Assembly: GCA_963817645.1 (NCBI GenBank)
Contig: CAWFQC010000024.1
Span: 102,256-166,255, forward strand
Source of the DNA: an uncultured Gammaproteobacteria bacterium
GTDB taxonomy: Bacteria; Pseudomonadota; Gammaproteobacteria; UBA6002
DNA: 64,000 nt
Direction of reading: 5' to 3'
Shown in pieces: positions 27,901-36,900 of the stretch (position 1 is its first letter; each line of letters begins with the position of its first letter). Made by a program: the position numbers.

Positions 27901-30900
27901 TTCTTAGTGATATTTAATGAAGCAAAATATTCTCTGCCGCTATTACACGAAACCCCACCTGGCTTTAATAACCTCAACTATACAGCCAGATAACTTGATA
28001 CGAATGCTATTAATTTCATCATAGCGGCTAGTATACTATAAATGACAAAATCATTGGCTATTTTCAATTGGATATTGTTGCCAAACTTCCAGAAGGTGAA
28101 ATACATATCAATCAGTTTGAAGAAATTTCAAGATGAAAATTCGTTTGAGAAATAAGTCTTGAAAAAATAAGCTATTTCCTATATACTAATTAGTCACGAG
28201 TACTTAGCATTGGAAAACTAACAACTTGTAGCTATAAATAAAGAGGGATTAAGGATGAGAGCATCAGGTATTCTACGTACCGGTCTTTTTGTGGTACTAG
28301 CAGTTCCAGCGGGTATCAGTTTATTAGGCTATAGTTTGAAGAAATGTTACGATAACATAAGGAACATAAAGAGAAACCCAATTAGAAATAGCATTAGATT
28401 ACTGGCAACAGTTGGTGCAATGGGTGGAGGGGTTTATTCTGGCATGATTCTAGGAGCCATGGCAGGAGCTGCATTGGGGTCTGTATTCCCCGTTGTTGGG
28501 ACTGCACTGGGAGCTCTCATAGGCAGCGTTTTAGGGGCAATCATGTTAGCAAGCGTTGCCAGTAGCCTTACAGCTTTCCTCTCGAAACACTTGCTTAGGG
28601 GTATATCATATTTACAACATAGAAATAATGATGAGACCATAAGCAAAACAAATCCCGAGAAATATGTTTTTACTGAAAAGAAAAGACTAAATGGAAATTA
28701 TAAGAAAAATCACGATATTACAATTCGTAGCAAAAATATTAGTTTATGCCGAGAAATTAAGAACAGAATTCCTTCAGGACCTTTTTGGACAGATGAATAT
28801 AAGCTTAGAAAAGCTTTAAACAAAGCTATCTCTGGTATGAAGGAAAACAGCTCTTATGAAGAATCTATAGCGAAGTTTAGAATTAAGGCTACCGGTGATC
28901 GCTATTTGAAAGCGACTAGTCAAGACTACAGTACTGTGCAACAGGAACTTAACCAATTGATGTAATTTATTTTCTGGTTGGATAAATCAAATGCGTTGTG
29001 TCTCTTTTTGTACAGCCAGATCCTATTCCCTAAGCAGCTTAGCAAACTACTTTAAAAATAGAATGTTTCAAACTCGGCTAATTCGCAATGTTTTGCATGT
29101 AAGCTCTCACAAAGAGGGTGAGGCAACGGATCTCTTCTTTTTTGCGCATGGCTGTTTCATCTCCTGGAATCTAAAAAGAACAGCTGAAATTGATCTGCTA
29201 AAAGAGATTAGACCTTTCAGCACAGAGCCCCTTGATAAAATTGAAACTGATCACTTTTCATTCAAGTATGGAGAAGAAACCTCTTTAGAAACACATGAAA
29301 GATTTAATTTAGATATCATCACCTTAGAGTCAGATCATGTTCAAATTAAGCTTGCAATATCCTATGGGTTAGCTGAGTCCATTAAACTGGAATATTACGA
29401 AGAGCTGATCATAAAAACGATCAAAAAAAACAGCCGCCTCCCAGAGGAACTGGCTAGAACCGGTAAAATTTCATTATCTCGAAAAGCCATTTCACAGCGC
29501 ATGGGAGAAATTTTTATTGAAATGAGTTCGGTCAATTTAAATAGTGATTATCTCGACGTACCGGAATATTTTTGGCGATATGCTAACTTAGAAAATTACT
29601 ATACGATGACAGAACAATTTCTAGATATTACACGCAGAGTAACAGCCCTGAATCAACGGCTTGATGTATTGCATCAATTTTTTGATATGTTAACTGGGCA
29701 ATTACAATTTCAACATTCTGCTCTTCTTGAGGTTATTATTATTCTTTTGATTTTGATCGAAATCTTTATTAGCTTAATACAATGGTCTAAGCACTTTTAA
29801 CTCAATAATCTTGGAAATTATCCGGAAGAGCCGAAAAAATTAGCTTTCTTCATAAGATTTGTGCCCTGACGTGAAGGACATGCAGGCGTTGCTCAAGATA
29901 ACAGAATTTTTATTAATGGTGTTCTTTGCATTTTTGGATATTTAAAACAGGTGCACCGTGGCGAGATTTATATGAAGACATCTGCGTTGAACTGGATCCC
30001 GCGGACAAGCCGCGGGACGACGTAGCACTGCCATTAAGTTAAGGGCATTTCCTCCTCCTCGCCGTCGCACTGCTATTAAGTTAAGCAATCTGTCGTCCGG
30101 TGATGGTTTGATCACGGAATCTAGGGAAGTGCCTCTATCCTGGATCCCGCGAACAAGTCGCGGGACGACGTAGTGGCACTGCCATTAAGTTAAGGATAAT
30201 TCCTCTTCACCGTCGCACCGTCGTCCCGCGACTTGTTCGCGGGATCCAGTAAAGTGGCATATATCCTAGATTCTGCGAACAAGTCACGGGACGACATAGG
30301 GGAGAAAAAACCCTTAACTTAATGACAGTGCCTCGCCGTCGTTCCTCGCCGCATGATGCTTGTAGAATGCTCAAACCTTTCATGCGAGGAATCCAGCGCC
30401 AATCTTATGAAGACGGCTGATTTTTTTCTTTGAAGGTGAATCAGATCAGACTTCAGCTCTGGGTCTTCGTCCTATTGGTTAGAGTATTTTTCATACGTCT
30501 GTGCGGACGAGGATGAGTTGTGCATAAGATATGGGTAAGTCGCGGGAGCGCCCTTAACTTAATGGCAGTGCGACGTAGCGGGAGCTAATTGACGACAGGC
30601 CCTAGTAAAGCATTTCTAAAAGAAGTAAGTAAAATATCTTTTAATTTTTTAAATTTCTCTGAATCTTGGGTAATTTCTTGATTAACTTCTAGTTCAAATC
30701 CGAGATAAAAAGAACAATCAAATTGTTTTCTCAAAAAAGTAACAAAACCATCTGATTTACCTTGGTAAGGATAATTATAGCGCACTTGAAAATCACGACT
30801 TAGTTCATAAATTTTTTCTTTCCATAAGCGGCAGAAATTTTTCTCATACGTCCTCCTCGGGTCATATAGCAACCCAATATCAGTCTTTCTAATCTCTTCA

Positions 30901-33900: not shown

Positions 33901-36900
33901 TCGTAGCTCTGAGTATCGACTATCGGCCAGATAAGATCGAGAGGTAACAACTTCAACATCTGGAATATCAAAATTCCAATCAGACAATTGGTTCACAACA
34001 ACAATGCTTATCATATTTTCGCCTTAGCAACAGGTTTTATTACAAGTAAATTTGCATCATAGGTTAAAATACCTAGCATGATAGAATTAATTAATCTACT
34101 AATTTTCACTGAATAATAATTATCATCTGACAATAAATTCTCCGAATAAGGATCGGCAACCACAACGTGCTTTTTCGTCTTATCATAACCAGCCAAAATA
34201 ACAAAGTGTCCACTGGGATGCCCCTTAGTATCATTATAAAAAATCTCATTTTGAGAATTTACATATTCACGCGCGCATTGGTAGAGATAAGTTGCACTCA
34301 ATCCTGTTAAAATAGGAAGCCCTTTATTAAATTGGCGGGTTAGCAATTTAGGGGTAAGATCCCTAAAACGCATTTCTCCCCCCAATTGTAAGAACTCTAG
34401 ATAGGCTCTTGTTGCCAGGTGCAATTTTTTATCATATTTATATTTCAATTGCTCCATGAGCTTGGCAGAAACATCTACATGAATATCATTAAACCAGGTT
34501 GGGTCAAAAACATGTAAATTATACGTATAAATAATTGCTTGATAGCCTCGTCGCAAAGCGTGAATAGCTAACATAACAGCTAAGGTCCCACCACTTTCTA
34601 AGTAAGAGACGCCCGAAATTACTTCTTCAAGAGATATTTCATCTCCAAAATAATGGTAAACAGCATGCAAACTTGTTGGCCCACATGTCTCGTCATCTGG
34701 CTGTGTCAAAATCTTTATCGGAAGCATTAATTCTACCTGATCCTAAACACTATCTTTTAACCCACTTATAAGTAATATAGTAGGTTGTTCAAGTTATTAG
34801 CAATTTCCTGCAAAAATGTGTTAACATTTCATCTTCTCCAACTGAAACTATCAAAATGAATAATCAATAAGGAGTTTTTAAAGGTTATAACGTAGTTAAA
34901 ATATAATAATCTCATTTTTAAATGGAAATTGGAGTATTTTGTGTGACAAATAAAATAGTTAATTTCATAAACTTGATCATCATCGGGTTTGGACTTTCTA
35001 TCAGCTCTTGGGCGCTTGGGGCAACTCATGAACCTCTAACGATGGATCAGGGGTTTAAATTTGCGGCAAAAGTTAAAGATAAACAGACAGTTATCGCCCA
35101 GTGGCAGATAGCTCCAGGCCATTTTTTGTATCGAAAGCATCTTCAAATCAGTGCTGAATCTTCCAATATTAAGCTTGGCAAACCACTTTACCCTCAAGGA
35201 GTTATCAAGAACGAGCCTGGATTTGGTTCCTTTGAGGTGTATCAAGAAAAAGTCAATATTCCAATTCCCATTTTAAAAGCCAAGGGCAATAAAGTAACAC
35301 TGGCAGTCCACTATCAAGGCTGTTCCGAGGAGGGCTATTGCTATCCACCTACCGAGAAAAAGGTAACCTTGGATTTAACCCAACCGGACCCTTCCATTAA
35401 AAATTTGACACAACCCATTGGAAAGACTTTTGATGTAGCCACGACTTTGCCTGATATTAAAGATCTTTCTGCTCCTTCCTCAGCCCAAGATAAAGTCTCA
35501 AAAGTATTAAGCTCAGGACATTTTTTTACCACAATCATAACTTTTCTTGGCTTTGGCGTGCTACTGGCTTTTACCCCTTGCGTGTTGCCTATGCTGCCCA
35601 TACTATCGGGCATTATTGTAGGTCAACGTCGTGAACATTTAACTACCTTAAAAGCCTTTAGCTTATCTTTAATATATGTAATTAGTATGTCGCTAACCTA
35701 TGCCATAGCAGGTATATTAATTGGATATGCTGGAGGCAGTATTCAAGCCATATTCCAAAAGCCTTGGCTGCTGACTAGCTTTAGCCTGATGTTTGTTGCT
35801 CTTGCCCTTTCCTTTTTTGGTCTTTATGAGCTTAAGCTTCCTCAATTCTTACAGAGTTTTTTATCAAAAGTAAGTAATAATCAGCGTAATGGCAGTTACT
35901 TGGGTGTAGCCATTATGGGATGTCTTGCAACTCTAATCGTCTCTCCTTGTGTTACACCAGCCTTGGTAGGTGCTTTGGGCTACATTGGAAAGACAGGTAA
36001 TGCTGCATTGGGAGGCACTGCCCTATTTGCCCTAGGTTTGGGCATGGGCATTCCCTTACTCCTGATTTGTACGGCAGGCTCTAAGCTCTTACCAAAAGCT
36101 GGGATATGGATGGATCGTGTAAAATATGTTTTTGGCATAATTTTATTGGCTATGGCAATTTGGATTATTGACCGTATTTTGCCAGGTCCAATAACCTTAA
36201 CACTATGGGCTGGTTTGCTCATTTTTGCTGCAAGCGCCATGGGATTATTTTCCGCCCCCAATCAAAAGATCGCTTCTCGCTTCAACCATGGACTGTCAGC
36301 AATATTTTTTATCTATGGGGTCATATTGCTTATTGGTGCAGCCATGGGCCACAACAATCCTTTGCAGCCTTTATATATTCCCAAAGCTCTAATAGCTAAT
36401 GCCCAGAATGAAAATGTAACAACCCATTTTAAATCTGTTGCTGATGAGAAAGAGGTCAACAATGCAATCAATGATGCGAAAGGGAAAAATAAAATTGTGA
36501 TGCTTGATTTCTATGCAAAGTGGTGTATTTCTTGTAAGTTAATGGAAAATAATACTTTTAACCATCCAGAAGTCGTCAAAGCACTTGAAAACTTTGTAAC
36601 CTTAAAAGCAGATGTTACTGAAAATGATAAAATTGCTAAAAATCTGGAACAAAAATTTCAAGTGATTGCTCCCCCCACTTTTTTATTTTTTGATGCCACA
36701 GGTAAAGAGCTCGAGAAATATCGCATTGTCGGTGAAATGGGTCCCAAGGAATTCTTAGCGCATTTGAATACAGTCATTAAAACTATTAGTAAGGAGCTTT
36801 CTTCATCAACTGACGAACCACTTCAAATATACAAATACCGGTTGCAACGGAAACATTTAAGCTAGGAACACTTCCTAGCATTGGAATCTGAATTAAGTAA

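Follow-up and report, generated by a model that had tools for sequence, protein, structure and literature searches.

Why would a bacterium encode two ATP-dependent amide-bond ligases and two hydrolases side by side? The question is raised by an operon in a 64,000-nucleotide stretch of DNA from an uncultured Gammaproteobacteria bacterium (contig CAWFQC010000024.1, positions 102,256 to 166,255). We refer to this whole stretch as the window, and all coordinates given below are positions in it. The operon lies on the minus strand at 30585-34727 and encodes a C39-like peptidase, a ligase that joins a RLAN domain to a RimK-type ATP-grasp part, a GCS2-family ligase and an FGase-family hydrolase. It is near certain that the locus is a copy of the conserved RLAN-type operon. 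As to its function, we give a probability of about one half to the reading that it makes and turns over, in the cytoplasm, a small peptide containing glutamate, which is built on analogy with known enzymes.

Four coupled genes and their families

When open reading frames (ORFs) are called, four intact genes are obtained, in the 5' to 3' order C39, RLAN, GCS2 and FGase, all on the minus strand. The first encodes a C39-like, papain-fold cysteine peptidase (34011-34727, 238 residues), and the second a ligase consisting of RLAN and a RimK/LysX-type ATP-grasp (32527-34014, 495 residues). The third is an ATP-dependent carboxylate-amine ligase of the GCS2 family, YbdK/GshA-like and with the glutamine-synthetase fold (31283-32521, 412 residues), and the fourth an N-formylglutamate amidohydrolase-like hydrolase of the FGase family (30585-31286, 233 residues counted from ATG).

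The junctions were read directly from the sequence. C39 and RLAN share a 4-nucleotide ATGA overlap at 34011-34014 (aaaatATGAtaagc), RLAN and GCS2 are separated by a gap of 5 nucleotides at 32522-32526 (agaTAActtgaATGgaa), and GCS2 and FGase again share a 4-nucleotide ATGA overlap, at 31283-31286 (ttaccATGAagata). At this last junction the ATG of FGase overlaps the stop of GCS2, and an alternative TTG start at 31316 was judged less likely. The translational coupling of the four genes, first proposed in a reading of the sequence alone (the sequence-only reading), is therefore confirmed by both the ORFs and the junctions. The divergent position of dsbD, also part of that reading, is confirmed as well: dsbD (34922-36865) lies on the plus strand across a spacer of 194 nucleotides (34728-34921), the presumed promoter region. 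A candidate promoter, TTGCTA-18-TATATT, is found in this spacer at 34803-34774 on the minus strand. Promoter-like matches around the spacer number 20, against 18.4 in shuffled sequences, which is no excess, and the same holds for terminator-like sites. An Rfam search of the window gave no match.

All four family assignments made from the sequence hold in Pfam searches, where each protein scores above the curated cut-off. The peptidase reaches 41.6 bits with Peptidase_C39_2 (cut-off 24). An alignment of homologues shows that Q9, C15, H174 and D192 are kept in it, which we take to be the C39 catalytic set on a papain-like fold. Further, it contains a helical insertion of about 60 residues, roughly at 76-135. 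The protein is cytoplasmic and stands alone, without fusion to an ABC transporter. With the double-glycine peptidases that process bacteriocins (PCAT1, ComA, LahT) it shares the fold and the conserved Q/C/H/D set, at an identity of 15-24%. However, these differ from the stand-alone window protein, as its neighbourhoods hold neither an ABC transporter nor a leader-peptide gene, so that it does not qualify as an exporter-linked peptidase of double-glycine leaders. The ABC-F protein of the window is soluble and is encoded on the far side of DUF155.

In the second protein the RLAN domain scores 161.5 bits (cut-off 25) over residues 26-170 and spans about residues 1-180, while the RimK domain scores 41 bits (cut-off 21) over residues 281-456. 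The ATP-grasp part takes about residues 190-485, with its start otherwise put at about residue 236. The extension of about 200 residues that had been noticed in front of a RimK-type ATP-grasp is real, and it is the RLAN domain. This domain carries a striking motif, Y51 Q52 .. G55 Y56 Y57 .. R65, which is kept in the window protein. Also kept in the homologue alignment are K282, K321, D435, E448 and N450, presumably the ATP-binding lysines and the Mg-binding Asp/Glu/Asn triad of ATP-grasp ligases.

None of the models for characterised ATP-grasp enzymes fits this ligase. The S6-Glu ligase equivalog NF007764 gives 34.4 bits against a cut-off of 331, the RimK subfamily TIGR00768 75 against 143.4, LysX 71 against 276, and the GshB models NF003573 and NF009110 20.2 against 272 and 53.3 against 408; MptN is below its cut-off too. 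The protein is thus identified neither as the RimK S6 ligase nor as a glutathione synthetase. We also considered cyanophycin synthetase, as defined by an N domain, ATP-grasp and Mur-ligase-like architecture and by a curated score, and rejected this assignment.

The third protein matches Pfam GCS2 over residues 12-293 with 93.7 bits (cut-off 21, E-value 1.7e-26). It has the GhExE signature as G12-V-E14-L-E16, conserved in at least 97% of 73 homologues; this is the Mg/ATP-site signature of ligases that activate a γ-carboxylate (PMC2588565). The GshA and YbdK models range from 18 to 64 bits on this protein against cut-offs of 176-427 (TIGR02050 63.9 against 176.4, NF010039 64 against 371, gshA_cyano 25.8 against 249). 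In the PDB it has no sequence match.

The fourth protein scores 68.1 bits with Pfam FGase (cut-off 28.9, E-value 1.6e-18), and its sole relative in the PDB is the uncharacterised Atu2144 (2odf, 5.9e-12). Each of E8, H9, D36, H118, H122, E198 and E200 is kept by 97% or more of 40 homologues. It is not identified as HutG, whose equivalog TIGR02017 gives 17.3 bits against 278.75, and no histidine-utilisation (hut) genes are present in the window neighbourhood. Since all four proteins pass Pfam while every NCBIfam equivalog or subfamily model stays far below its cut-off, each of them belongs to a broad family but to no characterised subfamily.

When reading the translations we saw no signal peptide or long hydrophobic N-terminal stretch in any of the four proteins, although no prediction tool was run. 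Neither does any of them match a PADLOC model of anti-phage defence at E <= 0.001.

The same operon across bacterial phyla

The RLAN ligase has more than 8000 relatives in the databases, many of them at least 60% identical across phyla and carrying names such as 'RimK family protein'. In a scan with one genome per species we confirmed at least 596 relatives. From these, the neighbourhoods of 80 RLAN loci in more than 10 phyla were sampled and analysed by tblastn with the four window proteins.

In 46 of the 80 loci all four genes are present in the order C39, RLAN, GCS2, FGase, and a further 21 have the first three. Given that the same order recurs in so many loci from many phyla, the arrangement is far beyond chance. 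Counting only the informative loci, i.e. those with enough flanking DNA, C39 is directly upstream of RLAN in 63 of 76, GCS2 directly downstream of it in 67 of 72, and FGase follows GCS2 in 40 of 61. The median inferred gap between genes of the operon is a few nucleotides. Carriers include Cytophagales, Planctomycetota, Omnitrophota and Desulfobulbaceae, and among the culturable ones are Pontibacter ruber, Rufibacter spp., Adhaeribacter aquaticus, Planctomicrobium sp. SH527 and Legionella adelaidensis NCTC12735. The operon is not lineage-specific: the co-localisation on which the sequence-only reading depended is strongly seen, but across many phyla rather than specifically in Legionellales.

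No fifth member of the operon emerged. When ORFs of at least 80 residues were clustered over the 80 loci, no other family occurred in more than about 10 of them, and conserved small ORFs (25-79 residues, within 1.5 kb) were found only in pairs of close relatives. Where C39 or FGase is missing no replacement hydrolase was found; the neighbouring genes are mutually unrelated. The operon is a four-enzyme module, two ATP-dependent amide-bond ligases with two hydrolases, that needs no further linked gene. The absence of a linked gene for a carrier protein, a precursor peptide or a transporter is what one would expect if the substrates are common metabolites.

In 2009 Iyer, Abhiman, Burroughs and Aravind reportedly predicted an RLAN-type amidoligase neighbourhood by comparative genomics, and this work is said to be the source of the Pfam family RLAN (PF14401). 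The window operon has the same domain content as that prediction (RLAN with a RimK-like ATP-grasp, GCS2 COOH-NH2 ligase, papain-like peptidase and FGase). Nothing essential differs; the local peculiarities are an FGase C-terminus derived from a repeat and a pseudogene-rich setting. The window copy is an added member of a computationally predicted kind of operon, not peculiar to this organism and unsurprising to a specialist. Full-text literature searches found no experimental work on the RLAN-type operon, in keeping with what the sequence-only reading had supposed. Papers on Klebsiella CfmP and on penicillin ligase were considered and set aside as irrelevant.

Two variants of the ligase are found outside the four-gene arrangement. 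Fusions of GNAT, RLAN and ATP-grasp, about 646 residues long (P0322, P0390 and P0276; L089 at 3517-5457, and L090), come from three short contigs of 2.2-5.7 kb in which no GCS2 is seen. The genes for them adjoin a CitMHS/DcuC-type anion transporter and a second GNAT gene. We rejected the idea that they are Ngg, the synthetase of N-acetylglutaminylglutamine amide (NAGGN), as no Ngg-type model matched and the GNAT part is hit only by RimI-like models below cut-off. The other variant is an 'orphan' RLAN-ATP-grasp subfamily (L083 at 9209-12284; L084; L088 at 4924-7491, Pseudomonas aeruginosa NZ_CP133752.1), 42-67% identical to the window protein. Orphan genes stand directly after an SDR oxidoreductase gene and have no C39, GCS2 or FGase beside them. 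The one in L083 belongs to a cluster for polysaccharide biosynthesis, and the gene after it encodes a PP-loop ATPase.

A proposed glutamate peptide and its alternatives

How could the four enzymes work together? In the scheme that we favour, the GCS2 ligase would phosphorylate a carboxylate and couple it to the amine of an amino acid X. As with GshA, EgtA and YbdK, this is most likely the γ-carboxylate of glutamate, and an N-blocked γ-Glu-X would be formed. The RLAN-RimK-type ligase would then put one or more L-Glu on the free α-carboxylate, and the product would be a glutathione-like γ-Glu-X-Glu(n). The FGase amidohydrolase and the C39-like peptidase would hydrolyse or trim these bonds, either limiting the chain length or recycling the product.

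Each step has a model among known enzymes. GCS2 enzymes activate the γ-carboxylate of glutamate for attachment of an amine, and in the RimK/LysX/MptN/CofF clade glutamate or an analogue is attached to a terminal carboxylate. RimK, MptN, CofF and the mammalian synthetases of N-acetylaspartylglutamate (NAAG) add Glu to a free α-carboxylate, and GshB does the same with Gly. The substrate of the FGase family is N-acyl-glutamate. The fold of the peptidase is common to double-glycine peptidases, an isopeptidase and phytochelatin-synthase-like enzymes. A small-molecule substrate is suggested because the operon loci hold no conserved gene for a carrier, precursor or transporter, and because small molecules are what the known enzymes of the GCS2 and FGase families work on. 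Further, the occurrence of GNAT-RLAN-ATP-grasp fusions without GCS2 suggests, by analogy, that the RLAN ligase may take an N-acylated amino acid, N-acetyl-X in the fusions and γ-Glu-X here.

One of the closest known systems is glutathione synthesis by the γ-Glu-Cys ligase GshA and the ATP-grasp enzyme GshB, together with the phytochelatin-synthase-like Alr0975, a papain-fold enzyme that handles γ-Glu-Cys. However, the window ATP-grasp falls in the RimK/LysX clade and not in that of GshB, it has RLAN as an extra domain, and the FGase partner belongs to this operon and not to glutathione metabolism. RimK itself is without RLAN, and its partners in Pseudomonas rimABK are RimA and RimB, whereas here they are C39, GCS2 and FGase. 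Unlike the LysX/ArgX-LysW carrier pathway, the operon has no lysine or arginine biosynthesis genes and no conserved LysW-like small protein nearby. Mammalian RIMKLA and RIMKLB (synthetases of NAAG and β-citrylglutamate), which are eukaryotic and not known to carry RLAN, belong to the RimK-type ATP-grasp ligases and attach Glu to a small acid whose N-terminus is blocked. The GNAT fusions suggest an analogous chemistry of N-acetyl-X plus Glu within the RLAN family.

Several points weigh against a small peptide as the product. Every chemical step is drawn by analogy, and all the equivalog-level models (GshB, S6-Glu ligase, YbdK, HutG) fail by wide margins, so the specificities may differ from those of the named enzymes. 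The hydrolases are not obligatory, with FGase absent in about a third and C39 in about a sixth of the informative loci. Protein C-termini are the targets of LysX, ArgX and RimK, structurally the closest relatives of the ATP-grasp part, and the peptidase is nearest to the double-glycine peptidases of leader peptides. Finally, an identity of 50-60% between phyla is unusually high for small-molecule enzymes; it could be due to a macromolecular partner that is itself conserved, or to recent horizontal transfer.

The main rival reading, less probable than the peptide, is that the operon modifies a protein. Here the RLAN-RimK ligase, with or without a PafA-like GCS2, would attach Glu or some other amine to a conserved protein whose gene is not linked to the operon, either at its C-terminus or on Glu side chains. 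The target could be a ribosomal protein, as S6 is for RimK. Exposing or removing the modified terminus would fall to the C39-like peptidase, and FGase would be the eraser, much as CCP deglutamylases oppose TTLL glutamylases; FGase has a carboxypeptidase-like fold. Both the structural neighbours, LysX/RimK and the double-glycine peptidases, and the very high sequence conservation speak for such a role. However, no conserved target, LysW-like carrier or small ORF was found near the operon in the 80 loci, and the GCS2 and FGase enzymes that have been characterised use free small molecules. The models of the two protein-directed ligases are far from reached (S6-Glu ligase 34 against 331 bits, LysX 71 against 276), and the GNAT-fused variants point to N-acyl amino acids as substrates.

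A storage polymer resembling cyanophycin is very unlikely. The ATP-grasp would then extend a backbone of poly-α-Glu and GCS2 would decorate its γ-carboxylates with an amine, while the peptidase and FGase would act as cyanophycinase and isopeptide dipeptidase. Two ligase activities with two hydrolases do mirror CphA1 (ATP-grasp and Mur-ligase domains), CphB and isoaspartyl dipeptidase. Given free Glu, RimK is able to produce poly-α-Glu (Kino et al. 2011, cited in PMC12632600). However, structural support for a polymer was not found.

Taking the small-peptide scheme one step further, we tentatively propose, at less than even odds, that the product is an undescribed glutathione-like γ-Glu-X-Glu(n) that may serve as a redox buffer, metal chelator or compatible solute. 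RLAN would then be a novel module for handling substrates, with a dedicated hydrolase for each of the ligases. The alternative would be a new bacterial system of writer and eraser enzymes for the glutamylation of proteins.

The module is present in at least about 600 species-level genomes of more than 10 phyla, and its proteins are 50-60% identical between phyla. Identifying the product would give a function to thousands of genes now named 'RimK family protein', 'glutamate-cysteine ligase family protein', 'C39 family peptidase' or 'N-formylglutamate amidohydrolase', and could bring to light a small peptide metabolite or a protein modification not seen before. Taken together, the system is a good place to look for new chemistry.

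Inheritance, repeats and broken genes

Was the operon brought into this genome as cargo? The sequence-only reading had placed it in an accessory segment and suggested acquired or mobile cargo. A related metagenome-assembled genome (L081/L082, 'Gammaproteobacteria bacterium') has the same neighbourhood as the window: rlmB, then dsbD divergent from C39-RLAN-GCS2-FGase, followed by the convergent DUF155, ABC-F, groES/EL and nrdBA. Its proteins are 83% (RLAN), 80% (C39), 68% (GCS2) and 54% (FGase) identical to those of the window. Because the synteny from dsbD through the operon to DUF155 is the same in both, the operon was inherited at this site. It is a vertically inherited chromosomal locus.

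Other observations agree with this. The G+C content of the operon is 0.34-0.37, close to the typical value of the window (about 0.38). No integrase, transposase or tRNA was seen at its borders, and a search of a phage collection with the ligase gave no match. Matches from the plasmid collection are on replicons of megabase size, or belong to an orphan RLAN gene of P. aeruginosa or to a Legionella adelaidensis record of 9 kb. In this last record (L087, NZ_LR134436.1, 'plasmid 27', 9073 bp), RimK-family, GCS and FGase genes stand beside fur, bamE, dapF and rnfH. It has the look of a piece of chromosome that was deposited under the name of a plasmid, and its RLAN gene is cut by the start of the record, so that the place of C39 falls outside it.

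The RLAN, GCS2 and FGase proteins of L. adelaidensis are 50, 46 and 43% identical to those of the window, while the RLAN copies of Bacteroidota reach 62%. For IleRS (53478-56309) the best matches are gammaproteobacterial metagenome-assembled genomes at 72-74%, and the first named ones are Chromatiales and Thiodiazotropha at about 59%; a placement in Legionellales is not supported by these matches.

That an intracellular organism of the Legionellales type recently acquired the operon as accessory or mobile cargo, which came with the repeat cluster next to FGase or is delimited by it, is thus highly improbable and largely refuted by synteny: the patchy distribution over phyla, the RLAN protein being nearer to Bacteroidota than to L. 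adelaidensis (which fits ancient horizontal transfer), the repeats abutting the 3' end of the operon and the relatives on plasmid-collection records would suit it, but the flanks are the same in L081/L082, which has no repeat cluster there, the borders, G+C and phage search give no sign of mobility, the plasmid matches are megabase-size, chromosome-like or an orphan gene, and IleRS does not point to Legionellales.

The repeat cluster lies outside the enzyme system, between FGase and DUF155 at 29983-30590, and resembles miniature inverted-repeat transposable elements (MITEs). It holds direct and inverted repeat families. The MITE-like family is found at four sites in the window (2921-3057, 29983-30590, 50328-50346 and 59766-60098) and has a core (CACTGCCATTAAGTTAAGG), a GC-rich palindrome (GTCGTCCCGCGACTTGTTCGCGGGATCCAG) and a common terminus (CTAGGGCCTGTCGTCAATTAG). 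For the 19-mer core there are 13 matches in the window, against 0.01 expected. The spacer between FGase and DUF155 is filled with repeats and is 785 nucleotides long in the window, but only 28 nucleotides and without the cluster in L081; the repeats are therefore a later insertion into this spacer.

The terminus is common to three repeat copies and carries an in-frame TAG, which agrees with the earlier claim that it supplies the stop codon of FGase. It encodes the last seven codons (LLGPVVN) together with the TAG. The native tail, which is different in L081 and the rest of the family, has been replaced by LLGPVVN*, and according to the family alignment only the variable C-terminal tail is affected. 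The locus shows that a MITE-like repeat can rewrite the 3' end of a gene without destroying the gene.

Several housekeeping genes near the operon are broken when compared with L081. nrdA has fallen into many fragments and groEL into three or more, nrdB is spread over three frames and groES over two, and rlmB is divided between two ORFs (regions 15943-19911, 23341-25244 and 36810-37525), while dsbD, ABC-F, DUF155, rlpA and PBP5 are intact close by. Two independent assemblies (L085, L086) show the split of rlmB with 100% identity, so that it is not a sequencing artefact. The broken genes point to real decay of the genome, or else to a second copy of groESL or nrd elsewhere.

Amid the broken nrdA, nrdB, groES, groEL and rlmB, the operon is intact and coupled. 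The best database matches of RLAN (85%) and C39 (82%) are closer than that of IleRS (74%), which argues for strong constraint and purifying selection on the operon. Apart from showing an operon under selection in a genome undergoing reduction, the window itself adds little.

A few other genes of the window deserve mention. An IcmF-related ORF, with IcmF-related and IcmF_C domains, is found beside a 594-residue ORF without Pfam match (the pair at 60480-62264 and 62388-63938, minus strand). The IcmF-related ORF starts just inside the end of the window and may be truncated at its 5' end. It fits a Dot/Icm-type or type VI secretion system, and nothing else in the window hints at a lifestyle like that of Legionellales.

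Between ABC-F and DUF155 there is a stretch of 1.7 kb (27291-28990) that corresponds to 68 nucleotides in L081. It contains an ORF of 236 residues on the plus strand (28255-28965), rich in Gly and Ala and with a glycine-zipper-like hydrophobic segment, which has only weak matches, to DUF6861 and to LeoB of PADLOC. It could be an insertion specific to this lineage, or a gene of the effector type. Two further genes look accessory, a homologue of AbiEi-type antitoxins or regulators (20385-21203) and a predicted AAA-ATPase with a PD-(D/E)XK nuclease domain, PDDEXK_9 (43005-44885). Finally, ribF and ileS are split in the window by a gene for an amino-acid-permease-like protein of 649 residues (56320-58269, minus strand), while in a relative, L092, ribF, ileS, lspA and ispH are contiguous.

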